Source: Lytechinus pictus | Lineage: Eukaryota | Length of the DNA stretch: 64,000 bases | NCBI RefSeq assembly: GCF_037042905.1 | Contig: NC_087250.1 | Span: 13,704,001 to 13,768,000, forward strand | Direction: 5' to 3' | Shown: piece after piece, positions 4,159 through 59,989 of the stretch | Numbering within the stretch: position 1 is the first letter of the stretch | How the letters are laid out: each line of letters begins with the position of its first letter | Position numbers and translations under genes: made by a program | The notes under the pieces: model-generated | What the model saw: only the letters and a program-made list of their open reading frames with translations | Told to the model about the DNA's origin: nothing | Databases searched by the model: none

Positions 4159-7100
4159 TAAGCTTGTAACCGATTTTGCAATCGGCAACCGATTCCATTC
4201 GATTTCACCACAATCGGCAATCACTTGCCGATCTTCGATCATGCCCCTTGAAGGAAAAAATCGAAAATAAAAAATCGGCGTAGATCTGGTTACAGTGCGT
4301 GATCGCTCAGAACATATTTCAAGATTGTTTTTGAGGTGCTAGCTATTTAGAGGTCGCATTATTCAGGGAGAAAGTCGCGGTATTATCTATGGCAATGTTT
4401 AAGGGGATAGATATCTTCTCTTCCAACTCATGGTGATAGCGGATGCCGCCGTGAACTTTGAAAGGTCGTATTACCGACGGAGCTCACTGCGTTACTCTCT
4501 TACATCGTTTATGATTATATACATTTTATTTTCAACCTCGTGGTGATAGCGGATGCCGCCGTGAACTTTGAAAGGTCGTATTACCGACGGAGCTCACTGC
4601 GCTACTCTCTTACCCCCTTTATAATGATATAAATCTTCTCTTCAACCTCGTGGTGATAGCGGACCCCGCCATTAACTTTTAAAGACTGTACTATTGACGG
4701 AGCTTATTGCGTTGCTCTCTTACATCGTTTATGATGATATTCATTTTATTTTCAACCTCGTGGTGATAGCGGAAGCCGCCGTGAACTTTGAAAGGTCGTA
4801 TTACCGACGGAGCTCACTGCGCTACTCTCTTACATCGTTTATAATGATATAAATCTTCTCTTCAACCTCGTGGTGATAGCGGACCCCGCCAGAAACTTTT
4901 AAAGACTGTACTATTGACGGAGCTTATTGCGTTACTCTCTTACATCGTTTATGATGATTTACATTTTATTTTCAACCTCGTGGTGATAGCGGATGCCGCC
5001 GTGAACTTTGAAAGGTCGTATTACCGACGGAGCTCACTGCGCTACTCTCTTACCTCCCTTATAATGATATAAATCTTCTCTTCAACCTCGTGGTGATAGC
5101 GGACCCCGCCAGAAACTTTTAAAGACTGTACTATTGACGGAGCTTATTGCGTTACTCTCTTACATCGTTTATGATGATATACATTTTATTTTCAACCTCG
5201 TGGTGATAGCGGAAGCCGCCGTGAACTTTGAAAGGTCGTATTACCGACGGAGCTCACTGCGCTACTCTCTTACATCGTTTATAATGATATAAATCTTCTC
5301 TTCAACCTCGTGGTGATAGCGGACCCCGCCATAAACTTTTAAAGACTGTACTATTGACGGAGCTTATTGCGTTACTCTCTTACATCGTTTATGATGATAT
5401 ACATTTTATTTTCAACCTCGTGGTGATAGCGGATGCCGCCGTGAACTTTGAAAGGTCGTACTATTGACGGAGCTCATTGCGTTACTCTCTTACATCGTTT
5501 ATGATGATTTACATTTTATTTTCAACCTCGTGGTGATAGCGGACCCCGCCGTGAACTTTTAAAGATCGTGCTACTGACGGAGCTTATTGCGTTACTCTCT
5601 TACATCGTTTATGATGATATTCATTTTATTTTCAACCTCGTGGTGATAGCGGAAGCCGCCGTGAACTTTGAAAGGTCGTATTACCGACGGAGCTCACTGC
5701 GCTACTCTCTTACATCGTTTATAATGATATAAATCTTCTCTTCAACCTCGTGGTGATAGCGGACCCCGCCAGAAACTTTTAAAGACTGTACTATTGACGG
5801 AGCTTATTGCGTTACTCTCTTACATCGTTTATGATGATATACATTTTATTTTCAACCTCGTGGTGATAGCGGATGCCGCCATGAACTTTGAAAGGTCGTA
5901 CTATTGACGGAGCTCATTGCGTTACTCTCTTACATCGTTTATGATGATTTACATTTTATTTTCAACCTCGTGGTGATAGCGGAAGCCGCCGTGAACTTTG
6001 AAAGGTCGTATTACCGACGGAGCTCACTGCGCTACTCTCTTACATCGTTTATAATGATATAAATCTTCTCTTCAACCTCGTGGTGATAGCGGACCCCGCC
6101 AGAAACTTTTAAAGACTGTACTATTGACGGAGCTTATTGCGTTACTCTCTTACATCATTTATGATGATATTCATTTTATTTTCAACCTCGTGGTGATAGC
6201 GGAAGCCGCCGTGAACTTTGAAAGGTCGTATTACCGACGGAGCTCACTGCGCTACTCTCTTACATCGTTTATAATGATATAAATCTTCTCTTCAACCTCG
6301 TGGTGATAGCGGACCCCGCCAGAAACTTTTAAAGACTGTACTATTGACGGAGCTTATTGCGTTACTCTCTTACATCGTTTATGATGATTTACATTTTATT
6401 TTCAACCTCGTGGTGATAGCAGATGCCGCCGTGAACTTTGAAAGGTCGTATTACCGACGGAGCTCACTGCGCTACTCTCTTACCTCCCTTATAATGATAT
6501 AAATCTTCTCTTCAACCTCGTGGTGATAGCGGACCCCGCCGTGAACTTTTAAAGGTCGTATTACCGACGGAGCTTATTGCGTTACTCTCTTACATCGTTT
6601 ATGATGATATACATTTTATTTTCAATCTCGTGGTGATAGCGGATGCCGCCGTGAACTTTGAAAGGTCGTATTACCGACGGAGCTCACTGCGCTTCTCTCT
6701 TATCCCCTTTATGATGATAGACATCTTCTCTTCAACCTCGTGGTGATAGCGGACCCCGCCGTGAACTTCAAATTGATTTGAAAACGCTAGCTACCCAAAA
6801 CATTTTAATAACATATTTCAAATCATCGTGCGTGCTTGCGTCGTCTACTTCATTTTAATTGCACTTGCGACTTTAAGATGATGCGTCGTAAGAGATCATT
6901 CCAATAATTCTAAATCGCTAGCACCTAAAAATACTTCTAAAAGATGTCCCGCCGATCGTTCATTAACCTGTGATCTATGAGAAATATTTTCATTTTATTT
7001 TCCTTTGCGCCTTTGCTCGGAAGATGCGTCTTTCGTTTATCTTTCTAATAAAAATCACTCGGTTTATTTTAAAGCAATAACACCTCAAAACCCCTGGCTT

Positions 7101-28683: not shown

Positions 28684-29354
28684 GCGCTCCTTTGACCTTT
28701 GACCCTTCCTCCTGACCTAGCACCTAGGGATATCTACAACAGCTCATTGACCTTTGAACTCTTGGGCTCACCATGTCTTAATATGTGAAGGCTCCAATTT
28801 GGATGTACGTTCCTTGTAGAACTAACAGCAAGAAGTAGCCCTGATCTTACTTCCCCATGATGGCATCTCAGCTTTGAACTTTGACCTGACCTTTGTTCAG
28901 TTACACATGACCTTTGAACCCATGTCACATGAAGGCTTCTCCTGAGATCTATACACTTTTGTGTTCCGCTATATTGAACCCATTCATCCTATAACCGCCA
29001 ACTGCAACCAAACCTAGCTCTTCGTGTGCGTATTCTCAGCTGAACTTTGACCTTTGTCCAGGTGGACATGACCTTTGAACCGATGTCATATGAAGCCTCC
29101 TATATTAAGCAACAACCACACCAAGAATGTAGCCTGATTGAAAATCTTCAAAAGCAGATATCTGGCCTCACTAGTTTACAGAAATACTCTATGTGGCCTC
29201 CTGAGATATTTATTATACCTATCACAGATTTATTACAATGTGCTAGTTTTTAATATCTTAATTGATTGTAGTAACCATAATATTTTCTATTCAAGTTGTT
29301 AGAGGTGATGTATTGCCCAGACGTTGGTTTATATTCACTTTGTCTATACACAAT

Positions 29355-38039: not shown

Positions 38040-41000
38040 TAGTATCCCGTAATTAGAAACCAACTGGAATAAAATTATTGGAAATGGTTTTTTGACTGAT
38101 TTGAGTAGGTATGGGTGTCAACATTTACCAAAAAAAGTTAGGAGGAATACGGGTTGGGAAAAGTGCTTTTTTTTTAAGGTCAAAGGTCAATGACCTTTTT
38201 AAATATACTGTATCATGGTATCTCCCAGATAAAATATTACAGGTTGGTGATCATGGTGTCAAAATGCACAGATTCTTACAAGAAGATCGAATAAAATCAA
38301 ATCAATTACCTACAATGCTCATTCACCCATGAAATTCAAGGTCAAAGCCTTTCAAAGTTCAATGACCTTTATTACATTATATACCATATACGGTATAATG
38401 GTATCTCTGAGATGAAAAGGTGCAGGTTGGTGATCTAGGTGTCAAAATGCAGAGGTTCTTACAGGAAGATCAAATAAAATCAAATTAATTACCCAGAATG
38501 CTCATTCACCCATGAAATTCAAGGTCAAAGCCTTTCAAAGGTCAATGACCTTTTTAACATTATGTATCATACTGTATAATAGTATCTCTGAGATGAAACG
38601 GCACAGGTTGGTGATCGTTGTATCAAAATTCCCAGATTCTTACAGGAAGGTCAAATAAGATAAAGTTAATCACCTAGAATGCATACTAATCCATAAAGTT
38701 CAAGGTCAAAGGTCAGTGACCTTTTTACGTAGGCTATATATCGTTAAAGGTATCTCTGAGATAAAACGCTGCATGTTGGTGATTTTGATGTCAAAAAGCA
38801 ATTTGTACAAGAAGATAAAAAGGACTCAAAATAATCATACATAATAATCCAATATCCAAAGTCAAAGGTCAAAAGTTGATAACTATTTATATATCCATGC
38901 ATGATTCCCCCCAAAAAGAAATTAATCCATTATATTCACATTTTATTTGTGAATAATAGAAAGAAAGATAACTATTTGTAATGAAAACTTGGAAGTCTAA
39001 TAATTTCACTCTGAAATAAGGATAAAAAATGGCCATGGAAAATATATTTAGGAGTTAAAGGTCAATCAACTATGTCAATAACGTCAGGGAATTTAACGTG
39101 ATTGTGGCATGTAGGTATAGTGATTCTGATGGGAAAAACCTGACATGCGTGGAAAAAGAACACAAATTTAATAGTTGAATCCTTGACCAAAGTTCGAGGT
39201 AAAATTTGATCAAATAGCACTTTTTCTTATAATATACTGTAATGCATTGACAAAAGTGTAAAAAAAATCATGTGTGATATAATTTGAAATGGTGACAATG
39301 GTGAAGTTACCTTAAGTAGCAGCATTTAGATATATGCATTTTATAAATCTTAATCAAGGTACTAATTTCTCTGTAGCAATAGGTCACTTACCTCAAATGC
39401 TATAATCAATACTATAACACTATAACGTAATCTGTAAATGGAAAGGATAGGCCTAACTCTTATGGCAAGCATCATCCGAGAACATTTTTATATAGCCAGG
39501 GACAATGACGAAAAATTAAAATAAGGCAATCATTAGAGCTTCAGCTTTTGTCATAGATGAAGTGAAGTGTCTCAACTTCAGCAAAGAGTAATTGAACTCT
39601 TGAAAACCTTCTGACATTTTCAAGACTTTGATCTGGCCCATTCAATGAAAGCCTTACGTTCTGTCAAGGGATATCAGACCAGGATCTATAGTATTACTGA
39701 TAATTGCACAGCTTGATTCTCAAGAACTGGAAGTGGTGCTGTAGGAGTTTTGTTAGGTCGATGGATGTGTACTTGTAAGCTATTATCTCCTTTTGAATTT
39801 CATTGTTATATGCCTAATTTGTGCATGATAACAATCAGTTGTTCTGGACCAAAAACATGATCCTCGTACAAACTGATACCTAGTAGAAGTAGCATCATGG
39901 GTAACGTACGGCAGAGAGCAGATATGAAGTTTTGTCTTGCAGCATTAGCATCACAAGAGATTCTGGCAGCTCGCAATGAAATGATGAAAGGTAATTGATA
40001 ATAATACGGGAATTAACCTTTCTTGAAGTTGATATATATGTAATTTACTACATGTATGCAGAAGCTGCAGCTCTAATGATGACCTTCATTTCATCATCCC
40101 TCTGCTGTTTGGAAATGCTCTCAGATGATGCTAGCTGTGACATGAGAGTTAGACCTGTCCTATCCATTTTCAGAAGATTAAGCTAATAGTTTATAGTATT
40201 TATTATAGCATTGAGGTGAGTGGCCTATCGCTGGAGAGAAAAGACACGACAACCTTGATTTAGATATAATGATGCATTAAATGCTGCATGCTACTCAAGA
40301 TAAAAATCATTTCAAATTATATACTTGATTTCATTTATTTTTTCAGTGCTTTTGGCAATGCATCGCAGTATATGAAAAAGTGTTATTTGGTTATCAATTT
40401 TTTTTACTTAATTTCCACTGATATTTTGGAAAGGGCTCATTGACCTCTGACCCCTAAATACATTCTCCATGGCCTTCATTATTTCAGACCAAAATCACGA
40501 AACCTCCATGTTTTCATTACAAATTAGCCATGGTTATTTACATTATTCAGATATAAAATATGAACACTAAAAATATTGTTTTTGGTTATTTTTATGTCAT
40601 ATAGATTATATATTTCCTCCGATCTAGGATTTCAACGGTGAAAGTTTATTCTTTATACTTATTTTAGTGTTGTTAAATAATTCTTGTACAAGTCTTTGGA
40701 TTTTGGCACCAAGATCACCAACCTGCAGTGTTTTATCTCAGAGATACCATTATTATTATCTAATGTTAAAAATGACATTGACCTTTGTCCTTGAATTTTA
40801 TGGGTGAATGTACATTTTCTATGCTTAATTTTATTTTATCTTCCTGTAAGAATATGCGTGTTTTGACACCAAGAACACCAACCTGCACCGTTTTATCTTA
40901 GAGATACAATTATATAATATGGTATATATAGTATAAAAGGTCATTGACCTTTGGCCTTAAATTTTATGCGTGAATGTGCATTCTAGGTACTTAATTTTAT

Positions 41001-41629
41001 TCTATTTGATCTTCTGGTAAGAATCTGTGCATTTTGACACCATGATCACCAACCTGTGATTTTTCATCTCAGGGATACCATTATACAGTATGGTATATAA
41101 TGTAAATAGGTCATATTGACCTTTGAAAAGCTTTGACCTTGAATTTTATTGGTGAATGTGCAGTCTAGGTACTTAAATTTATTTTATTTGATCTTCTTGT
41201 AAGAATCTGTACATTTTGACACCATGATCACCAGCATGTACCTTATCATCTCAGAGATACCGTACAGTATGGTATATAATGTAAAAAAGGTCACTGACCT
41301 TTTGAAAGGCTTTGACCTTGAATTTTATAGGTGAATGTGTATTCTAGGTCATTAATTTTATTCTATTTGATATTCTGGTAAGAATTTGTGCATTTTGACA
41401 CCATTATCACCAACCTGCGCCTTTCCATCTCAGAGATACCATTATACAGTATGTACAAAAAGGTCATTGACCTTTGACCTTGAAAAAAAGCACTTTCCCC
41501 AACCCGTATTCCTCCTAACTTTTTTTTTGGGTAAATGTTGACACCCATACCTACTCAAATCAGTCAAAAAACCATTTCCAATAATTTTATTCCAGATTGG
41601 CTCTTTTGGGGTCTAATTTAGGGATACTA
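38040..41629. mobile_element. 3.6-kb Academ-like element with long TIRs and ~180-bp subterminal repeats
   Basis: TGT|TAGTATCCC ... GGGATACTA|TGT (3-bp TSD, TAG...CTA termini); arms mirror each other for more than 1 kb. Confidence 0.85.
39600..39965 (-). pseudogene. Degenerate transposase-like coding remnant inside the Academ-like element
   Basis: Minus strand reads AARQNFISALCRTLPMMLLLLGISLYEDHVFGPEQLIVIMHKLGI*, then YNNEIQK in a shifted frame. This recalls the LG..L.H.FGS..LI..LH.LG...SY.E..K segment I associate with Academ-type ORFs (from memory). Confidence 0.4.
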
Positions 41630-48646: not shown

Positions 48647-48846
48647 ATGAGTGGTGAGTTTTGGTTGATCTCTGCCCCAGGCGAGAAGACCTGCCAGCAG
48701 ACATGGGAAAGGCTGAACGGCGCCACCGTCAGGTTCGATTTGTCCTTGAATTACAAGTTTCCGATACCAGACCTGAAGGTCGGAACACTGGACACGCTGG
48801 TTGGGCTCTCGGATGAGCTGGGGAAACTGGATTCTTATGTTGACAA
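48647..48846 (+). CDS. ATP6V1C: V-type proton ATPase subunit C, coding exon 1 ([24 protein letters not shown]...[25 protein letters not shown])
   Basis: ttcAG|ATG; GTAAGT donor at 48847; 200 nt. Hallmark [17 protein letters not shown] and [15 protein letters not shown] motifs. Confidence 0.97.
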
Positions 48847-49068
48847 GTAAGTATCATGTTCCCCAGGGAGTGGAGAAAGTTATATGTGGGGGGCAAGCAT
48901 GAATCTGATGACAATCTTAACTTGGGCCAGGTGGCCGATTTTGAGTGAGTTGATTGGTGGGATTGTGTGTGCCAATAAATAAATGTGCATTGATGAAACT
49001 GATCCTAACTAAAACTATTTCAGAGAATAGGAATGAATGTTATCCCTCCCACTTTATGAATCACCCTT

Positions 49069-49232
49069 ATACCTCGGTCACATTTGCTCTACGGCAGCCG
49101 TACGGTGAGTCGAAAACGGCCATTTTATTCATTTTTATTGAAACCACCTATATTTAGCTGGTCCAAAAAATGTTAAAACAACTGTTTTTTACTTGCCGTA
49201 CGTCCGCCGTAGAACAAATGTGACCGAGGTAT
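49069..49232. mobile_element. Short palindromic MITE
   Basis: ATACCTCGGTCACATTTG ... CAAATGTGACCGAGGTAT. Confidence 0.8.
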
Positions 49233-49318
49233 TAATATTGATAGCCTACTTGAAGATTATTTTATTGTCTATCTCCCTCTCTTATCTCTCTCCATATCTC
49301 TCCCCCTATCTCTCTCAG

Positions 49319-49404
49319 TATCACTCACAAGCTTGCCCATTACCTCGGTGAGGTATTAGAAGACCAGAAAGACAGACTTGCAGAGAATCTCATGGCCAAC
49401 AGAA
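49319..49404 (+). CDS. ATP6V1C: V-ATPase C coding exon 2 (NITHKLAHYLGEVLEDQKDRLAENLMANR)
   Basis: CT-rich acceptor; GTAAGT donor; 86 nt; phase consistent. Confidence 0.95.
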
Positions 49405-49504
49405 GTAAGTTAATAATAATAATAGTAATAATGATAATAAGGTCATATTTTACCCAGGGAAGCCACTTCAGTTCTAAAAACTTGTCTACCAGCGGACCCT
49501 GCTT

Positions 49505-49591
49505 AACATGATAATGTTATTAATAATAATGATAATAATGATAATGATATGGATAGTGATAATGATAGTGATCATGATAACGATAATGATA

Positions 49592-49638
<47 letters not shown>

Positions 49639-49890
49639 AATGATGATGATAATAATAATAATGATAATAGTAATGATGATAATTATAAATAGAGTGCAGA
49701 AACTATTCATTTAATTATTCTACTGCACTCTATAAGACTCCTACAATGCTTTTTAATGAAATAGATGTGTTTTGAGTTTTGATTTGAAGTTGTTTGTGGA
49801 TGGTGCCTTCCTGACTTCCAGGGGTAAGCTATTCCAGAGTTTGGGGCTAGACAAGCAAATGCTCGATCACTTCGCATCATTTTGTGATAG
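49505..49890 (-). mobile_element. 5'-truncated L2-clade LINE 3' end with (ATC)n tail
   Basis: With one frameshift, the minus strand encodes RSDRAFACLAP/KLWNSLPLEVRKAPSTNNFKSKLKTHLFH*, the typical L2/CR1-group ORF2 C-terminus. A short UTR and a microsatellite tail follow. Confidence 0.85.
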
Positions 49891-50819
49891 GAAGAGAACA
49901 TGATTGATTGTAAAGGGGCTTTCACTCCTTATGATCGCTTTAGCCAGCTTGCCGATGGACTTATGGCAAGCCATGTCATCAATAAATCTTGTAAACCTCT
50001 ATAATTTAAAAGAAAAATCGTTATTGATATCAGGGGCAGGTACAGGATTTTCCAGGGGGGGGGGGCATTTTTTTTTACAGGAAAAGTTGATAAGTGAAAA
50101 AAGGGGGGGGGGGGGTTTACTACAAAATGGAGGTCATTTTGTTCCAGGAAATATTTGATAAGCAAAAGAAGAAAAAAAGGTCCACATTCGAGTATGAATG
50201 ACATATATCCCAATAAATATTTGTTGTGTCTCTCAAAAGGGGAGGGGGCGTGAGGCTGGGTGTGCCCCGACCTGGATCCGCCAGTAATTGATATGAAGAA
50301 CTGCCATTTGTTATCACCACTGAAACGGTCAGTCATCCAGGTTTTAAATCTGGTTTAGTCCCCGACTGTGGGGTGGCTGAATTCACCTCACACTCACCCC
50401 TCTCCCCCTTCCCCCACTTTCTCTCTATGCGATGCATCCTCCTCCCTCCAACTGATTTATTGACTGTAAGAAACAAATTATTGATATCAAGAATATGCCA
50501 ATATCAAAAATTCTTGAAGAAACTGTGTATTGTTGAGAAATGAGCAGAACAAGTGTAAAATTCCAGCTGAGATGTCGGTTCTTATTCCAAGCAATGCTAA
50601 TACACTTTCCCACATGTGCATGTCTGTATTGGTAATCGTTTTTTGCTGAAATTCATGATTTCATACAATTCCCTTATTGTTACTCTACCAGATCTTTATC
50701 TACGATTATATAGTGAAAATTAACCTTGGTTAAATACAGACTTTATCAGGAAATCAGTGTTTATGGTAACTAGTGTCATTTATCTTTAATATGTGACATT
50801 TATTCATTAATTCTTTTAG

Positions 50820-50914
50820 TGGACCTGAGCACGTATGTAACTAGATTTCAATGGGACGTAGCCAAGTATCCAATCAAATTACAGCTAAAGAGCATCGCTG
50901 AGATCATTAGCAAG
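50820..50914 (+). CDS. ATP6V1C: V-ATPase C coding exon 3 ([32 protein letters not shown])
   Basis: ttttAG acceptor; GTGGGT donor; 95 nt; TRFQWD.AKYPIK motif. Confidence 0.95.
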
Positions 50915-50929
50915 GTGGGTATTTGTCAT

Positions 50930-51165
50930 CTATTAATTCATTTATTCACAAATTAATTTATTCTTCAATTCATTTTTTCATTCATTCATTTATTCATTCA
51001 ATTCATTTATTCATTCATTCAATTCATTTATTCATTCATTCATTCATCAATTCATTCGTTCATTCATCAATTCATTCATTCATTTATTCATTCATCAATT
51101 CATTTATTCATTCATCAATTCATTTATTCATTCATCAATTCATTTATTCATTCATTCATTCATTT
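50930..51165. repeat. (ATTC)n microsatellite
   Basis: Directly visible; continues in degenerate form to about 51750. Confidence 0.95.
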
Positions 51166-52003
51166 ATTACCGCTAAAGAGCATCGCTGAGATCATTAGCA
51201 AGGTAGGTAAAGTGTCATTCATTGGGTTTATTCATTTATTCATCAATTCACATTAATTTGATATATTGTAATAATGATGGCCAAAATTTATATCACGCTT
51301 TACCCAAATGGCCCAAAGCGCTCACAATTTCAGTTTACCTAATTCGAACAAAAATATACAGAATAACATACATATAAATAAAGGCAGTTGCCGAGAACAA
51401 AAAAAAAGATTTTAGGGACCACTTGAATGACTCAAAGAGTCCCTCACTCATTCATTTGTTTATTCATAAATTCATTTATTTATTTTTTATTTATTCATTT
51501 AGCCGTGTATACTTTTACTCATGCATTTATGTATTCATTCATTAATTAATTATTTTTTTCTTTATTCATTCATTTATATATTAATTCATCTGTTCATATT
51601 CATGTATTCATTTATTCATATATTCATGAATTCATTTTATTTTGAAGCATTTATTCATACTCATTTCCATTTACCCATTTATTTATTCACTCATTCAGTC
51701 AATATACAGTGATCAAAATTGTTTTATTTGTCTTCTTCATTCATTTAATTTCTTTTATTCGGATGCTTGAATTACATCAATGCTAATTTGGGTCTGTAAT
51801 CTTGTCATATAGTGACAAGGTATTACATTTAGTGACAAAATGATCGCTCAACCCGTTTGTCATTTGACCAATAAATTGCTGCTGCTAATGATGATGGTTC
51901 TTATATAGCACCGGTATCCATCTCTGCTGGGTGCTCATGGCGCTCAAAAATAGGAAATGTCGTGTCACAAATTTCATTGTCTTCAAACAGTGCTTGGAAT
52001 CGT

Positions 52004-52278
52004 GGAAGCGCCGTGGTGTAATCAGAGGGTCGTGTGTTCGAATCCCACCATGGCCTAGCGTCCTTTGGCAAGGCGTCAATCCACACTTTGCCACTCTCAC
52101 CCAGGTGCTGATTGGGTACCGGTAGGAAACAACCGTCATTGTGGTTGGTTTAGCAAGTTTGCGCCTTACAGGCTGCTTGAAATGCTATGAATCCAGTGAC
52201 CGGGTAATAATAATTGTGAAGCGCTTTGAACAGTCGTAGATTGATAAAGCGCTATATAAATGCCAATTATTATTATCA
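52004..52278 (+). mobile_element. tRNA-derived SINE, same head family as 10547, with a 23-bp head deletion
   Basis: Near-identical B box and body; AGCGCTATATAAAT plus (TAT)n tail. Confidence 0.85.
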
Positions 52279-52372
52279 TCATTCAGTTCAGTCTGAAATG
52301 TAACAAAATACATCCACCTGTATTTCAGTTCATATTTGACATGATTTGTATTATTTCCTTTCTTTTTTTCAG

Positions 52373-52464
52373 CAAGTATCACAGATGGATGGCGATCTGA
52401 AGACCAAATCTCATGCATATAACAGTATTAAGGGAAATCTGCAAACACTAGAGAGAAAAGCCAC
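52373..52464 (+). CDS. ATP6V1C: V-ATPase C coding exon 4 (QVSQMDGDLKTKSHAYNSIKGNLQTLERKAT)
   Basis: Polypyrimidine tract plus cAG; GTAAGT donor; 92 nt. Confidence 0.95.
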
Positions 52465-52945
52465 GTAAGTTACAGGTCAAAGGCCAAGTCAATGGCCTTT
52501 GGAGCACTATGTTAACCGATGGTTTAATGGATAACTAAAGTTGTATGTGGGATACATGGATAGTGATCAAGTTTGACCAAATTGCTGTTTTGGTGCAAGT
52601 TTCAACTCATAACCAAAATCTGAAAATGAGCTAGCATACAGAGTCTGATTACAGTAGTATTAAACTCTGTTATGCACAAGGGCAAACTAATTCTTACTCT
52701 CGTATTTCATCAAAATTTGTTGACTGACAAGTTGTTAGATCTGACAATTTCCTTGATTTTGATTGGCTCAGAAACATCGTTACTATACTAATTGTGGGAT
52801 AAAAAACAGGATTTGTTGGAAGGATAATCTGACAAATCTTGTGAAATGTTCCGGGAAGACAAAAATTGAGGTCAGACGTACGGAAAAGATAATTATTTCA
52901 TGAAATTGCTCGGATATAAAAGTGGAATTCTCTTTTATTTTACAG

Positions 52946-53044
52946 AGGAAGCTTATTGTCGCGGAACCTTGGAGACATCGTCAAGAAGGATGATTTCATC
53001 AATGAGTCAGAATATCTCACAACGCTGCTTGTCGTCGTTCAAAA
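52946..53044 (+). CDS. ATP6V1C: V-ATPase C coding exon 5 ([33 protein letters not shown])
   Basis: tacAG acceptor; GTAGGA donor; 99 nt; SEYL.TLLVVV motif. Confidence 0.95.
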
Positions 53045-53543
53045 GTAGGATATATTCTCATCTATTTCATATGCATTTATAGTATTAAAGGAGAGTGACA
53101 CACTGGGAACCAGTTAGCTTGTATGAAAATAGAAAAATAAAAAAATGCACTTATAAATGATTATACAATTCCCAGTGCTTATACTCTCTAAATTAGCAAC
53201 ACAAATGAAAACAAATATTAAAAAATATTATTTCTATCTTTTTGAATATTTTTGAAAATGTCATTCATATACGTTTTTACTCTTTCTTGTATTGGTACAC
53301 ATGTAAACCAATATTTGGTTACTTCAGATTATGTTCATGAGTAAAATAGTTGTAAATTTGAGGCTAAAAAGTTGTGTTTCTCTATGTATTATATGTATAA
53401 ACACGGCTCTTAACAAAGCCCAACCCTAGAAGTCTCCGTCAACTCTAAGTGGGGGGGGGGGGGGGGGGCTTTAATAAAGTCATATCTGACATTATTTCTG
53501 AAATAATTCTCATGTTATTGTTTTGTTTCTTTCTCTTTGGCAG

Positions 53544-53612
53544 GAATCTCTACTCTGATTGGACTTTGAAGTATGAGAAACTTTCAGACATGGTTGTACC
53601 AAGGTCAACAAG
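53544..53612 (+). CDS. ATP6V1C: V-ATPase C coding exon 6 (NLYSDWTLKYEKLSDMVVPRSTR)
   Basis: ggcAG acceptor; GTGAGT donor; 69 nt; YE.L..MVVPRS motif. Confidence 0.95.
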
Positions 53613-53760
53613 GTGAGTCAAACAAGCAAATGTTTTTTTTATATCCTTTGCTTAAAGATTGTTGCACTGAAAGTGGACACAAAGAGTAAACAAACAGATT
53701 TACTAGGAAAAAAACTTTTGCCATGAAATAGTTCATTTTCCTTGCTGATGTCACGCTTAT

Positions 53761-53973
53761 GGGGTGTTGCAAGAAACTTGCGATCAATTGCAAGTCTATT
53801 TTTGGACCCTAAATCAATCATGTGTCTTGTAGTTAATTGCAAATTAGTGATTGATTGTTAATCTTTAAACAAGAAGTTTAATCTGATGTGCTACAACTAT
53901 CGTTGATCTATCATTTGTAAAATTGCAACCGAATATTTGCAATTGATCGCAAATATTTTCTTGCAACACCCCC
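53761..53973. mobile_element. Harbinger-like MITE
   Basis: GGGGTGTTGCAAGAAA ... TTTCTTGCAACACCCC. Confidence 0.8.
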
Positions 53974-54536
53974 TAAGTCCATGTTTTCCAGAGGGAACAA
54001 AATGAACTATACATGTACGTTTTTCCGACCCCCCCCCCACGCGTACTGCACTCAAGACCCGTACACTGTCATGCATGGCAGCTGAAGCCACTGTGCGCAT
54101 CTCACTGGGTGTGCCTAGCACTGGGGGGGGGGGGGGATGGGCTGCCTGCAAAGTGATCAGCATATCCGAAAAGTTAATGAAATTGTTCCTAAGTTATTAG
54201 TTTTTTAAATATTTATTTTCTCTTTTTTGATGTGATGAGGAATGATATAGGTGGAGGGGATATAAATCAAGTGTACAATGACTCATTCTCGGAACAGTAA
54301 AACTATACACACTCAAGGGTGCTATTGATGTTCTTTCAATGTGAATAATTTCAGCCAGATTCTCGAGCGTCATAGTATATTTGTACATTAACATGGAGTT
54401 TGTGGGGTTTGTCATTATCCTGAATGGTAGCAGTTACAAATGGAATACGGTTCTGCGCTCAGAATGTTGCATTGTGGGTAAGGAACTTGTCCAGAATTGA
54501 ATGGTTGAGGACTTTAGTTGGTACTATAGTGGTGGT

Positions 54537-54815
54537 GGAGCGTTGTGGCCCATTGGATTAATCTCCGGACTTTGAAACAGAGGGTCGTGCTTGGGTTCAA
54601 ATCCCAGCCATGGCGTAGTTTCCTTCAGCCAGAAATTAATCCACCTGGGTGAGGTGAATGGGTACCAGGCAGGAATTTATTCCTTGAAATGCCGAGCGCG
54701 TAAAAGCTGCTTGAGCTACAGCCGGGGTAATAATATCCAAGTCCTTTGGAAGCGAATAGAGACCTTACTCATAATGTGTTAGGCGCTATACAAGAACCGA
54801 CTATTATTATTATTA
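54537..54815 (+). mobile_element. tRNA-derived SINE
   Basis: GGAGCGTTGTGGCCCATTGG (A box), GGTTCAAATCCC (B box), GGTGAATGGGTACC core and (TAT)n tail. Confidence 0.8.
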
Positions 54816-55171
54816 TACTAGACTTCAGATAATTATTTGCATTGAATGGGTGAAAGCTTGTCTTCAGTATTGATTCTACGGTATGTTTCATGAAGCACTT
54901 TGTCAGTGATTTTCACAAGCAATTCATTCTGAGCCAATCAGATGCAAGGATTTCAGTAGCTTATAACAATAGTGAAAAATCAATGATTATTTGTTTCATG
55001 AAATGCTCCCCTGTTTAAATCAAGAGTGCTTATTAAAAGAGCAGAGTACATTACCTGAAGAAGACAAGAAAGCTTTAGCCAATCGGATGCAAGGATTTCA
55101 GTGGCTTTTAACAGTTTTTGGTGGAAATCGTTTATTTTGTGAAATACCCTCCATGTTTGTTTATTATGCAG

Positions 55172-55264
55172 GATGATCTATGAGGACAATGATCATGGTT
55201 TATACAGCGTCACATTATTCAAGAAAGTCGTAGATGAATACAAGCTACATGCCAGGGAAAACAA
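55172..55264 (+). CDS. ATP6V1C: V-ATPase C coding exon 7 (MIYEDNDHGLYSVTLFKKVVDEYKLHARENK)
   Basis: tgcAG acceptor; GTGAGT donor; 93 nt; VTLF.K.VD......RENK motif. Confidence 0.93.
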
Positions 55265-55611
55265 GTGAGTATTGATCCATGCTTGCCAACTGTCCCCATT
55301 TAACCCTAATACTCTTGACATTTATTGCAAAATATCCGCGGCACAAAATTGTTTCCTCACCACTCTCTAACATTTTTAGACCAATTTTGCGATGCCGGGG
55401 AGAGAAAACAAGAAAATTTTCATCCACAATGTCCCTATTTTTAGTGAAACTTTGCCCACAGGCTTGTGTAAAAAGTTTAGCAATGTCCCTATTTTGTTAT
55501 TTTTAATTTATTTTTTGTGATACCTTGTACCTGTTAAATGGACTTGAAATGTTGGCAGGTATGTGAATCTAAGATTCGTCAGTAGTGAATTCATTATAGG
55601 GTGATAATTAG

Positions 55612-55704
55612 AATAGGGAAAAGGGACAATGATCGGGGTTTATACAGCGTTACATTATTCAAGAAAGTCGTAGACGAATGCAAACTACATGCCAGGGAAA
55701 ACAA
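55612..55704 (+). pseudogene. Tandem duplicate of V-ATPase C exon 7 (pseudo-exon or alternative exon 7b)
   Basis: 55624-55704 matches exon 7 with 6 substitutions and keeps the GTGAGT donor. An AG lies at the homologous position (55610-11), giving an open 93-nt frame. Confidence 0.8.
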
Positions 55705-55989
55705 GTGAGTATCAAAACAAGCTCCATTTATTATAGTGTGAGAATAAAAGAAAGAGATAGTGATCATGGTTTATACCATGTAACATTTCTGTTATTTTCA
55801 GCAGGTACTTTTCACAACTAATTGCTTTTAATCTGCAATATCGATTTAGCTTTAATTTTGCATTGAATGGGGAATTTTGGAGTTTATTTTTTTTTTATTT
55901 CCAGGGCTCTTTTGATCATTTTGGGGGCGAAATCGCCCTGAGCCCCTCTGTATTTTTTCCCTGGTTTATACAAGCGTCATGTGAGTTGA

Positions 55990-56670
55990 TAATAACCATT
56001 CATTTACTTTTACCTTTAACCTCTTGCATATAGGTTCACGGTGAAAGATTTTATATACAAGAAAATGTAACTCATAACCATACATTTAACCTTTGAACTT
56101 TGACCTCTTACACAGATGTATTATCTGAGAGTGTACATACAATGATCAATGTTGCTAATCAGAACATTCTCATATAACTTGAAATTTGACATATTGCATA
56201 CGTTCAGGGTGGAATGGCTCATATAAATTGAGATGTTTGAATAAACTTTAATGCTAAACTAACCTTTCATTTAATATTTGAACTTCGACCTTTTTCACAG
56301 GTTTATTGTTAGAGATTTCACATACAATGAAGAGTAATGCTAACAATAGACTAATTTAAACTTTGAACTCTGACCTTTTGTAGGTCTGTAGTAAGTGGTC
56401 TCATGTACAATAAAAATTAAATGCCAACTATAACCTTTCATTTAAACTTTGAACTTTGACCCCTTATGTAGGTTCATGGTCAGAGATACAATGAAGAGTA
56501 ATGCTAACAATAGACTTAGTTCAACTTTGAACTCTGACCTTGTGTAGGTTTGTAGTAAGTGATCTCATGTACAATACAAATCCAATTCCAACCATAACCT
56601 TTCATTTAAACTTTGAACTTTGACCCCTTACATAGGTTCATGGTCAGAGAGTTCACATACAATGAAGAGG
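55990..56670 (+). repeat. Tandem array (about 85-bp unit) of the V-ATPase C exon 8 acceptor + exon start
   Basis: CTTTGAACT.TGACC...YAG|GT....G..AG.GA.....TACAAT unit; AGs end at 56033, 56115, 56300, 56383, 56471, 56547 and 56635 (functional). Confidence 0.9.
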
Positions 56671-56729
56671 AGTTAAATGCAGGGAAGAATGAGCTTAACA
56701 AGCTAGCAGCTGACAAGAAAAGGCAATAT
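56636..56729 (+). CDS. ATP6V1C: V-ATPase C coding exon 8 (FMVREFTYNEEELNAGKNELNKLAADKKRQY)
   Basis: catAG acceptor; GTAAGA donor; 94 nt. It is the only copy in the acceptor array that continues as an open exon. Confidence 0.93.
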
Positions 56730-57285
56730 GTAAGAAACCATTTTAATCTAATTTATTTTAGACAAAGTAGCGATACGTTATAGTTTGGTTATAGATTTGT
56801 TATGCAGAACCTAAAACAAAATCGTGCCAAAGGCATCAAATGGAAGCGTAAATTCTTGTAATATTTTTTTGCACATTTTATTGCACATTTTATTCAATAT
56901 CTTTGTCCACAGGAAAATAATTATTGAAATGGTAATGTGATAGAAATGTCCATTGCTGGGAGGGGGGGGGGGGTTTCATGCAATATGGCAAAATAAATTT
57001 TAGATAGATATTAGCACAATGTTTCTTTAAATTATTATCACTAATTTTATGCAAAAATGGAGATTTAAAAAGGAAAAAAAATGCAGCAATGAAGAAAAAG
57101 TTCTTATGTTGCCAATTGAAATAATGTACAGTTGATTGTTTCCTGCTAGGTGTAATGTATAAATAAGCTCACACCAATTTTAATAATTTTTAAGTGAAGA
57201 TATAACGAAAAGAATTTCCACTGTGGGTATTATTTATCAATAGTTTGTGCGTACATAACGCCCATTTCTTTATGTTTTTTTGCAG

Positions 57286-57383
57286 GGACCTCTGGTTCGA
57301 TGGCTCAAGATCAACTTCAGTGAAGCATTCCAAGCTTGGGTACACGTCAAAGCTCTAAGGGTGTTCGTAGAATCAGTTTTAAG
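57286..57383 (+). CDS. ATP6V1C: V-ATPase C coding exon 9 ([33 protein letters not shown])
   Basis: T tract plus gcAG; GTAGGT donor; 98 nt; highly conserved family motif. Confidence 0.97.
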
Positions 57384-57409
57384 GTAGGTTCGATGATGAA
57401 CAGAGAACT

Positions 57410-58070
57410 TTTGGAGCCGCTTGTCTGACGGCAGCGGCGTCTTCAACATTGAAATCTTGACCAACTTTAAGTTTTTGAAATGTCATAACTTAGAAAGTAT
57501 GCGGACTTTTTCATGAGCTTGGACATACGAGTAATCAAGTATCACTGAACATCCTGCCTAAGTTTCAGGATACATGACCAAGGTCAAAGGTCATTTAGGG
57601 TCAATGAACTCAAACTGTTTTGGGGGGATCAACATTGAAATCTTAAACAAGGTTAGGTATTTGTAATGTTATAACTTTGAAAGTATATGGATCTAGTTAA
57701 TGAAATTTGGATGTAAGAGTAATCAAGTATCACTGATTGTCTTTCATGATCAAGGTCAAAGGTCATTTAGGTCAATGAACTTTGACCGTGTTGGGGGTAT
57801 TTGTTGAAATGCTGTCAAAACTTTGAAAGACCATGGATTTAGTTCATGAAAACATGGGCATAAGGGTAGTCAAATATCACCTATTGCCTTGCACAAGTCT
57901 TTGGTCACATGATCAAGGTCATTTAGGGTCAGTGAGCTTAGTAATTCATTGTCATATGATTGGTATTTTTTGTAAATGAATCTTCATCTTAGTTGTTTTC
58001 TAAGTCAGCACTGCTGCAGTATCAAATCGCGTAATGCAGGTGAGTCTGCCAGAGGCTTTCCACTTGTTTC
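57410..58070 (+). mobile_element. Non-autonomous repeat with internal GGTCAAAGGTCA-containing tandem units (possibly Helentron/HINE-like)
   Basis: About 3 internal ~180-bp units; ends in GCAGGTGAG...GCCAGAGGC..TCCACTTGTT; T-rich flanks. Classification is tentative. Confidence 0.5.
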
Positions 58071-58122
58071 TGCATTCTACTTGTTTACCAAATCGCTTTG
58101 ATCTCTCAAATTTTTCTTCTAG

Positions 58123-58258
58123 ATATGGTCTACCAGTCAACTTCCAGCCCATGATACTACAACCTTACAAGAAAACGCAAAAGAAAATGAGGGAGGTCCT
58201 AAACACGCTCTACGGCCATTTAGACGGAAGCAACATTACAGCCAAAGATGCAAAAGTG
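58123..58258 (+). CDS. ATP6V1C: V-ATPase C coding exon 10 (YGLPVNFQPMILQPYKKTQKKMREVLNTLYGHLDGSNITAKDAKV)
   Basis: ttctAG acceptor; GTAAGT donor at 58259; 136 nt; YGLPVNFQ motif. Confidence 0.95.
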
Positions 58259-59586
58259 GTAAGTATGATTAGGTTGTGCTATAAAACGGGTTCAAGGATG
58301 TAGCCATGGGCATCAGAGCAAAGGATTATATTTTGGTATTGGTGAAACATTTATTGCACCTCCCCCATGCACAAAAGATAATCCTCTGCGCTGACGCCCA
58401 TGGATGTAGCTAATATCAAGTGGGCATACAAGCCTTGCGTCCATGCTTTATTTCTATAATTGTTTCTTTATGCCTTGTTTTTGGGGTGCAGTGCTGCATG
58501 TGATATATAATATAATATAATAATTCTTCAAAGGAAAGGTTATGCCCCAAGGATTTTGACGTGCTTGCTCAGGCGCGCATACTGGATATGCCTGTCACGT
58601 CACTATAGCAGGAGCCAGATGTGATCTCTTCTTTTTTGCAATCCTAGCAAACAAATTATGCAGAGACCTAGTAATCACTTTTCCTGTTAGTCTGTCGGTC
58701 TGTTACAAATATGTTTTTGTTTTACTTGCTCTCATTATGTTCGCACTTCCTACAAACGATCCTTGGGTAATACCTCATTTGTTTTCAAGAGGATGATTTG
58801 ATGGGTCAAAAGGTAAAATGATATGAGGCCATGTCTATCCTTTTTCAAAGGTTTTGTTTAACTTGCTCTCATTTCTTTAATTTTTTTAACATCAATTGTG
58901 ATCACAATTGGTACAAATGATACTTGTGTAATACCCCATGTGTGTTCATGAGGATAATGAGGCCAATGGTCACTTAGAGGTCAAAAGATCATATTGCATA
59001 TTTCATTGATTGCAAAATTGGGAGACTCATGATTCCGTATCACGGTGTATAAAATAAATTATGCGTATTGTTTATAATCACTTGGTTTATAAACAGTTGG
59101 TCTACTTCCCACATAGTCCTATCATCATTTATATGTACTGTAGACAGTCCTGCTTTTTGTAATCAATAATGGTTTATGTATGGAATACCAGTTTGCCTGT
59201 TTTGAAATTATCCCTCACTCCTCATAACATGCGTCCAAGTCTAATGTCTTTTTTGAGATAGGCTGCAGAGCACTTTTAAGATTATAGCAGATGATGATGA
59301 TGATGATGATGATTGTCTCTGTGTCAGGCAATCATCTAAGAGTTTCCTGTCAGTGGGGTTTGAGATTTTGGTCAAATTATCTTTATCTGCACATGTGCAG
59401 ATCGTATCAACGAACTGGCCTATTTGCTGAGTTTTCATACATCCTTCTCATTCTCTCTCTATTCTCTTCTTGATTTATCATTATTATTTGAGTGTGTTCA
59501 TAACAGCTTCTGAAATCTTATGTTCTTTCTTGCCTTTCAGATAAATTTTTTCATATAAATTTATCTGATAGCTTTATCTGAAAATA

Positions 59587-59868
59587 TTGTGGCCCAGTGG
59601 ATTAGTCTTCTTACTTTGAAACAGAGGGTCATGGGTTCGAATCCCAGCCATGGTGTAATTTCCTTCAGCAAGAAATGTATCCACATTGTGCTGCACCCAA
59701 CCCAGATGAGGTGAATGGGTACCCGGCAGAATTAATTCCTTGAATGCACTGAGTGCTGAAAGGCAGCTCGAGCTCAAGCCGGGGTAATAATAATAAACAA
59801 TGCGACTCGGAATAGATTATTTCTAGATAGATGGCGCTATATAAGTTCCTATTATTATTTTTATTATC
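59587..59868 (+). mobile_element. tRNA-derived SINE ending about 35 nt upstream of the last V-ATPase C exon
   Basis: TGTGGCCCAGTGG (A box), GGTTCGAATCCC (B box), GGTGAATGGGTACC core and GGCGCTATATAAG+(TAT)n tail. A reversed tail fragment of this family lies at 23790-23857. Confidence 0.85.
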
Positions 59869-59902
59869 ATGTCCTCCTTTTCTCTTTTCTCTTCTTTCAC
59901 AG

Positions 59903-59989
59903 GCTGTTGATATGCCAGGTCTAATGTTTGCAAACACCGAGTACTACCCCTATGTCTTCTACCCTATTCAAATCAACTTCTGCGACTGA
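59903..59989 (+). CDS. ATP6V1C: V-ATPase C terminal coding exon 11 (AVDMPGLMFANTEYYPYVFYPIQINFCD*)
   Basis: Strong acceptor; D.PGL....EYYPYV motif; TGA at 59987-9. Summed CDS is 1149 nt = 382 aa. Confidence 0.95.
   Translation, partial: AVDMPGLMFANTEYYPYVFYPIQINFCD

Follow-up and report, generated by a model that had tools for sequence, protein, structure and literature searches.

The window analysed here is a stretch of 64 kb from the 812-Mb assembly of Lytechinus pictus (G000:C6:13704001-13768000), and it carries the gene for V-ATPase subunit C. The gene's first coding exon shows 100% identity with the corresponding part of the protein "V-type proton ATPase subunit C-like [Lytechinus pictus]", and mapping of the same protein by tblastn placed eleven coding exons at 48647-59989. 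A search of the whole assembly with PF03223 yielded 11 scored candidates. All five significant matches fall within the V-ATPase C locus, indicating that the gene is present in a single copy. The exons, intron 7 and the boundary copies of the gene described below are on the + strand, and all positions are those of the window. Exon 7 (55172-55264) matches residues 214-245 at 100% identity (tblastn, P0002 query) and ends in phase 2 with ...AACAA/GTGAGT; its borders correspond to the RNA junctions 53610 to 55170 (cut +2) and 55264 to 56636. The latter junction also delimits intron 7 (55265-56635), which is 1,371 nt long and of the GT..AG type. Exon 8 (56636-56729, 94 nt), bounded by the RNA junctions 55264 to 56636 and 56729 to 57286, matches residues 246-276 of solved vertebrate V-ATPase subunit C structures (E 8e-7). 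Its acceptor reads AG/GTTCAT because the third base of a Lys codon and then a Phe codon form the start of the exon. The region 53400-58400 gave no matches in Rfam and tRNA scans.

The end of intron 7 and the start of exon 8 contain an array of eight contiguous units of ~85 bp, arranged head-to-tail at 55985-56672, which was delimited with a unit profile (nhmmer tiles, E 1e-15 to 1e-24). Each unit consists of ~45 nt derived from the end of intron 7 and ~40 nt derived from the start of exon 8, and aligns at -50..+40 around the real AG. The authentic acceptor is located in the edge unit, which is continuous with exon 8: unit 8 (56588-56672, E 1.2e-24) carries the real AG, which ends at 56635, and reaches 37 nt into exon 8. 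Among the seven upstream copies, the YAG is kept in six, referred to here as decoys, and lost in one. Decoy d1 (unit 1, 55985-56071, E 1.1e-15) has an AG ending at 56033 which reads AG/GT, and d2 (unit 2, 56067-56150, E 2e-18) has an AG ending at 56115 which reads AG/AT. Unit 3 (56153-56237, E 3.2e-15) has lost its AG and reads CATACG for CATAGG, with CG for AG. In d4 (unit 4, 56253-56339, E 2.3e-20) the AG ends at 56300 and the unit reads KFIVRDFTYNEE followed by a stop. The AG of d5 (unit 5, B type, 56338-56419, E 4.8e-18) ends at 56383 and is followed by GTAAGT at 56391-56396 and by AATAAA at 56409-56414. Decoy d6 (unit 6, A type, 56422-56503, E 1.3e-20), with its AG ending at 56471, carries a 7-nt deletion in the exon-derived part, and d7 (unit 7, B type, 56502-56581, E 4e-17) has an AG ending at 56547 and GTAAGT at 56555-56560. 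In both B-type decoys GTAAGT lies 7 nt past the AG, and five of the six AG-bearing decoys read AG/GT. If spliced to exon 7 (phase 2, ...AA/), the decoys would give in-frame stops after 4 (d2), 12 (d1 and two others), 25 and 25 codons. A sequence-only reading of this DNA had already listed the seven AGs, the copy near 56200 without an AG, the five AG/GT decoys, the two GTAAGT motifs, the AATAAA and an in-frame stop within about 25 codons for every decoy, and each of these proved correct.

An identity matrix and a self-comparison distinguished two subtypes of unit, A and B, which alternate through the whole array with a period of 164-169 bp. The array matches itself (55968-56498 vs. 56137-56669) at 71% over 561 nt, and the periodicity is sharpest in the last four units. 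These four units, the ones nearest to exon 8, form two 164-bp dimers which are 92% identical (56322-56485 vs. 56486-56649 in the repeat search). Decoy d6 and the real unit share 90% identity and d5 and d7 share 89%, and over the whole array the units differ mutually by 8-50%. Tandem Repeats Finder reported a period of 86 with 4.6 copies (67% matches) as well as a period of 164 with 2.0 copies (92%, score 567) over 56240-56650. The dimeric alternation that the sequence-only reading assigned to the distal copies is thus real, with the refinement that it runs through the whole array and is most pronounced beside exon 8.

Two other readings of the units were considered and dropped. Unit 4 encodes a vertebrate-like FIVRDF where the live exon encodes FMVREF, which could make it a fossil of an older coding state. 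This was rejected, as Diadema and another echinoid encode FIVREF and as each of the four bases by which unit 4 departs from the live exon in these codons has changed to T. From these codon changes, the vertebrate-like FIVRDF is best read as AT-biased decay. The unit motif TGAACTTTGACC could be taken as a nuclear-receptor DR1-like element; this was set aside, as motifs of this class abound in several repeats of this genome that are unrelated to one another. In the array units the motif coincides with the branch-point region. Elsewhere in the window, TGAMCYNTGAMCY (mostly TGACCTTTGACCT; a TTTGACC-type 7-mer repeat, nuclear-receptor DR1-like) was observed in several unrelated repeats, at 1733, 2558, 25628, 28693-29081, 38177, 38703, 40441, 41468, 57581 and 57753, with 20 matches in the window vs. 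0.1 expected. It adjoins arrays with ~180-bp units, at both ends of 38203-38711 and at one end of 40949-41453, and these two arrays are inverted relative to one another. In the window as a whole some ten distinct arrays were counted, their periods ranging from 56 to 405 bp, and at 4427-6768 there is a large satellite-like array with a 110-bp unit in 21 copies (83% matches).

The origin of the array was examined by comparing it with the rest of the genome. When the 164-bp dimer was searched against its own 812-Mb assembly, four matches were found, every one inside the array, showing that the locus is single copy. Within the 64-kb window, the best match of the unit profile outside the array had an E value of 0.012 and comprised merely a short shared motif of 24 nt. 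An origin from a dispersed repeat or satellite is ruled out by these results. As judged from the alignment of the units, the look-alike acceptors exist upstream solely through descent from the real acceptor, and the AG/GT, the in-frame stops and the branch-point motif of the decoys are present because they were inherited from the real boundary. The founding segment would have consisted of ~45 nt of intron, with a branch-point-like TTGAC, a short pyrimidine stretch and a YAG, followed by ~40 nt of exon. Several rounds of tandem duplication of this ~85-bp segment across the intron 7/exon 8 boundary, with unequal crossing-over or replication slippage as the most likely mechanism, probably gave rise to the array, after which the units would have diverged to the A and B subtypes. 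The youngest step appears to have been the duplication of the 164-bp A-B dimer, including the real acceptor. The resulting array would have lengthened the intron and been tolerated without having a function of its own.

A mis-assembled or falsely expanded repeat could produce a ladder of this kind, and an amphioxus repeat of comparable type was, according to the accessible part of the report, wrongly assembled in a draft genome (PMC3087553). Expression of intron 7 is below detection, so that the array itself has no reads that are independent of the assembly. Nevertheless, an assembly artefact is very unlikely. The units differ by far more than the near-identical copies which result from assembly errors, the window contains no N, and similar arrays are present at other loci of the same assembly (see below). 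In addition, an independent transcript contig corresponds to 55543-55693 without differences and crosses the border of the exon 7 copy in the intron.

This exon 7 copy is one of several further boundary copies in the gene. It comprises exon 7, its donor and 19 nt of intron (55624-55723; 89% identity in blastn and the repeat search), matches residues 219-245 in tblastn and carries GTGAGT at 55705. The pseudo-donor at 55705 occurs in none of the listed RNA joints, and the sense depth in the bin 55571-55737 is 0.11-0.43. It is followed by a decayed copy of the end of intron 6 with the first half of exon 7 (55715-55787; 67% in blastn, weak in tblastn with E 0.37). At 55963-55984, the sequence shows part of exon 7 with a deletion inside it, followed by GTGAGT and adjoining unit 1. 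Together with unit 1 this fragment gives the stretch 55963-56071 the appearance of a miniature pseudo-gene piece, in which an exon 7 fragment and GTGAGT are followed, after ~49 nt, by an AG and a start like that of exon 8; this may be the remnant of a duplication across a once shorter intron, or the product of a later deletion. Because the fragment and its GTGAGT abut unit 1, a duplication of a whole module consisting of exon 7, a short ancestral intron and the start of exon 8 was considered. It is not supported, as the profile detected no exon-8-like unit upstream of the exon 7 copies or elsewhere in 55265-55984. Taken together, copies of its own two boundaries make up ~872 of the 1,371 nt (64%) of intron 7. 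A third coding exon is also affected: the end of coding exon 3 (GCTAAAGAG...AGCAAG) is repeated at 51172-51210, as found by tblastn and blastn, with the original at 50884-50916, 289 nt upstream. The last 31 nt of exon 3 plus the donor GT form 33 identical nt at 50884-50916 and 51172-51204, and an (ATTC)n microsatellite at 50932-51168 separates the two copies. Boundary copies are therefore associated with three of the eleven coding exons of the gene.

Single-base differences between RNA and assembly were observed in exons at 55196, 55244, 55247, 56696, 57300 and 57336. Some of these are fixed in every run (e.g., 55244 G>A) and others occur at about 50%, which fits the high polymorphism of sea urchins. 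The RNA allele at 55244 is the base that is retained in the intronic exon 7 copy.

To determine which acceptors are used, RNA reads from three stranded rRNA-depleted libraries (X9-X11; one study, same species label, ~6% of each run read) and one transcript contig set (X1) were aligned to 53400-58400. The junctions 53610 to 55170, 55264 to 56636, 56729 to 57286 and 57381 to 58121 were each represented by 16-54 reads per run, and all four are also present in one 1,247-nt transcript contig. All 124 listed exon 7 junction reads (47, 54 and 23 in the three libraries) join 55264 to 56636 in gene orientation, as does one contig, and a decoy AG was found in none of the best 15 of 63 joints. In the bins 56239-56405 and 56406-56572, which span decoys d4 to d7, the depth was 0 on both strands in all four runs. 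The sense depth was at most 0.01 in the bin 55905-56071 and 0 in the bin 56072-56238, where a few reads of opposite orientation were seen. As reads spliced to a decoy must cover the decoy stretches, and the sense depth there is essentially zero, no such reads are present. In the RNA examined, splicing uses the last copy only, and the exact 95% upper bound for 0/124 limits decoy use to less than ~2.4% in the steady-state RNA of the three libraries. The sequence-only reading had named the absence of reads on the decoy AGs as one of the signs of a neutral array, and within these libraries no such reads were found. A neutral array is the most likely reading.

The RNA depth at 54569-54735 and 54903-55069 (intron 6) and at 57408-57908 (intron 9) was far above that of the exons, up to ~290. 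These stretches show many loose ends, rearranged joints and opposite-strand joints, and the RNA appears to come from repeated elements at other places in the genome rather than from V-ATPase C pre-mRNA.

The presence of five decoys with AG/GT, each after a pyrimidine-rich stretch and a branch-point-like motif, had led to the proposal that they act as ratchet points for a stepwise removal of intron 7. In the accessible parts of the literature, recursive sites are characterized by strong 3' and 5' motifs in juxtaposition and by their location in very long introns, of more than 40 kb in flies (PMC6110457) and with medians of hundreds of kb in human studies (PMC10156609). The decoys share with such ratchet points (PMC6110457, PMC8605326, PMC10156609) the YAG/GT pattern inside an intron, as far as the portions of these reports at hand describe it. 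Unlike ratchet points, they have no strong juxtaposed 5' splice-site motif, as the donors that would be regenerated (such as CAA/GTTCAT and CAA/GTCTGT) agree with GTAAGT in just 2-4 of the 6 positions, and they are located in an intron of 1.4 kb instead of tens to hundreds of kb. The AG/GT itself is inherited, since the real acceptor also reads AG/GT, and no RNA reads were found on the decoys. The depth in intron 7 (0-1) is too low to reveal nascent intermediates, and ratchet-junction reads, lariats or a sawtooth pattern were not seen. Based on these results we regard recursive splicing as highly improbable.

The AATAAA of unit 5 had likewise been put forward as an intronic poly(A) signal. This strand of the window has 58 occurrences of the hexamer (0.9 per kb), three of them in intron 7 vs. 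~1.2 expected, which does not set it apart from chance, and it is absent at the homologous place in the sister unit d7. No RNA ends were found near 56430 in the three libraries and the contig set, where the depth is 0. Intronic polyadenylation is not supported by these data.

A further possibility is unproductive splicing, noisy or regulated, in which decoys or latent exons are used weakly or conditionally and NMD destroys the products, thereby trimming V-ATPase C expression. At the sequence level, two latent exons can be recognized, 56301-56390 (90 nt; YAG of d4, GTAAGT at 56391) and 56472-56554 (83 nt; YAG of d6, GTAAGT at 56555), each with an internal stop. In both, an A-type acceptor with a consensus GTAAGT 84-91 nt further on forms an exon-sized unit with both splice sites, so that acceptor, donor and premature stop of a poison cassette exon are all in place. 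Moreover, all decoy products have early stops, and d6 equals the real site by simple descriptors. Decoy transcripts carry premature stops and could be removed by NMD, and steady-state RNA would miss such products, for which reason the absence of decoy reads bounds their abundance and not their production. Against these points, there were 0 sense reads on decoys vs. 124 canonical junction reads in the three total-RNA libraries, and inclusion of the latent stop-containing exons was not observed, with a depth of 0 in 56239-56572 in all four runs. The GTAAGT, in turn, arose in one B unit, and its pair stems from the last dimer duplication alone. Finally, boundary copies are as frequent in this genome as ordinary intronic duplications, with no sign of selection for them. 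Unproductive splicing is therefore an unlikely explanation, although less so than recursive splicing or an assembly artefact. With respect to the interpretation offered by the sequence-only reading, the skipping of six look-alike acceptors stands and exon definition fits the data, while recursive splicing, regulated truncated or NMD isoforms and intronic polyadenylation are not supported.

We compared the decoys with the real site to see how the last acceptor could be distinguished. By simple 3' splice-site descriptors, d6 and the real site are identical in pyrimidine content, in branch-point candidates (TTGAC, with the A at -13, and TTCAT at -32) and in their 76-nt AG-free zone. As d6 is indistinguishable from the real site in these respects, the deciding information must be outside the repeated 86 nt, in the context downstream. 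The 94 nt past the real AG, which constitute exon 8, are 67% purine, contain four GAR-like motifs and are followed by the donor GTAAGA at 56730, whereas the corresponding stretches past the decoys are 43-53% purine and contain 0-1 motifs. Only unit 8 is continuous with the rest of exon 8, purine-rich and seemingly enhancer-rich, and only its acceptor would pair with a good donor 94 nt downstream. Because of this continuity with an enhancer-rich exon and a donor, the last acceptor alone would complete a well-defined exon. In the B-type decoys, the GTAAGT is probably too near to the AG to make an exon. Composition and published work on other genes indicate that the choice of the last acceptor is likely to be based on exon definition.

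Arrays of this kind have been described before. In amphioxus, head-to-tail minisatellites across an exon-intron boundary, called mirages, leave normal splicing undisturbed, and length polymorphism and somatic instability have been reported for them (available sections of PMC3087553 and PMC3902484). The units of the amphioxus gene BflGb6 consist of an intron's 3' end together with the 5' portion of the exon, and are present as 3-6 copies of 150-160 bp with 81-100% identity (PMC3087553, in the part available); according to the same sections of the two reports, many units retain AG/GT and splicing is regular (PMC3087553, PMC3902484). The array in the V-ATPase C gene shows the same characteristics: it is tandem and head-to-tail, its unit spans the boundary and contains the splice signal, the authentic site is in the edge unit, and regular splicing is undisturbed within the steady-state RNA of the three libraries. 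It is an acceptor-side mirage minisatellite in an echinoderm, and as such belongs to a kind that is already known. It differs from the amphioxus mirages in that its host is an echinoderm and its gene a housekeeping gene present as a single copy, and in that its units are older, more diverged (50-92% identity) and organized as a higher-order A-B dimer.

In human genes, junction minisatellites are known at the donor side, namely in F7 intron 7 (37 bp), the interferon-inducible gene 6-16, CBS intron 13 (31 bp), LMNB2 (100 bp) and PDGF intron 4 (81 bp). In F7, LMNB2 and PDGF, the site attached to the exon is the only one used, while some pseudo-sites are used in 6-16 and CBS, according to the sections of PMC1557585 available. 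The V-ATPase C array resembles these five in having the authentic junction in an edge unit next to a row of similar pseudo-sites. The human arrays, as described in these sections, repeat 5' splice sites downstream of the exon, whereas in V-ATPase C it is the 3' splice sites that are repeated, upstream of the exon; and compared with 6-16 and CBS, where some pseudo-sites are active, none was seen in use in the V-ATPase C array. Natural acceptor-side minisatellites were not found among the literature matches listed, and a full-text literature search, with most subscription journals outside its coverage, gave no sea-urchin report of such arrays.

The duplications in intron 7 can also be related to models of intron evolution. 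Intron gain and growth by internal tandem duplication, the Rogers model, was reportedly addressed by Hellsten and colleagues in 2011. The model is also discussed in the accessible part of an amphioxus report (PMC3087553). As in intron growth under this model, the duplicated boundary segments have become intron sequence; unlike in Rogers-model intron gain, intron 7 has been lengthened and no new intron has been formed. Taking the evidence together, the array is probably a locus-specific, mirage-type intronic minisatellite that is tolerated, has no function of its own and is not a device for the control of splicing.

To estimate how often exons in this genome have boundary copies nearby, a census was made of exon-level matches to two unrelated families, chaperonin (PF00118) and kinesin (PF00225). 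It covered 60 loci with 1.5 kb of flank each, of which two with a match of more than 400 nt were left out. A locus was scored as positive if a copy in direct orientation lay no more than 700 nt away and took in 25 nt or more of the exon match; exon edges in this census are the edges of profile matches and may differ from the splice sites. A local copy was found for 6 of 58 exons (1/28 chaperonin, 5/30 kinesin; 95% interval 4-21%). Equally long flanking intronic control segments had a copy in 16 of 116 cases (8-21%), which is not different from the exons (Fisher p 0.63). In at least four of the six positives, the copy continues from the exon match into the flanking sequence. The frequency in the V-ATPase C gene (3/11) is not significantly higher than that in the census (p 0.15). 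One of the positive loci (L036:848-1731, contig C9) is a kinesin motor-domain exon with a five-unit acceptor-side array of ~150-bp units with 88-95% identity. Its four upstream copies contain the end of the intron and the first 108 nt of the exon, and all retain the polypyrimidine tract and the AG. This array is of the same kind as that in the V-ATPase C gene and is younger. Although the census is small, it suggests that this genome has frequent junction copies, with no depletion compared to intronic duplications. That boundary-copy minisatellites are general in this urchin genome, and possibly in highly polymorphic marine invertebrates such as amphioxus and urchins, is a tentative idea which we consider rather doubtful at present.

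Taken alone, the array is an ordinary tolerated repeat, and its value is that of a natural experiment and a model for 3' splice-site choice. Decoy d6 is located 164 nt upstream of the real acceptor, is transcribed earlier and cannot be told apart from it by simple descriptors, yet it is ignored in a single-copy gene. As it is ignored in spite of this likeness, the information that selects the acceptor should lie deeper in the exon, beyond its first ~40 nt, or at the donor downstream. For donor choice, the human F7 minisatellite has played the same role. Sea-urchin embryos accept injected minigenes, which makes the choice of the acceptor testable. Junction copies may be abundant in this genome in general, and the array adds a single case to this picture. 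Should a genome-wide count with a gene annotation bear out their frequency and lack of depletion, this would be relevant to the lengthening of introns and to the rise of new exons and introns. If about one in ten sampled exons indeed has a nearby copy, no rarer than in intronic DNA, selection would barely purge duplicated splice sites. Boundary copies would then be a major route of intron growth, as in intron 7, and would supply a lasting stock of latent exons, among them the two complete A-B units with stops described here, from which regulated poison exons or new introns could be recruited.
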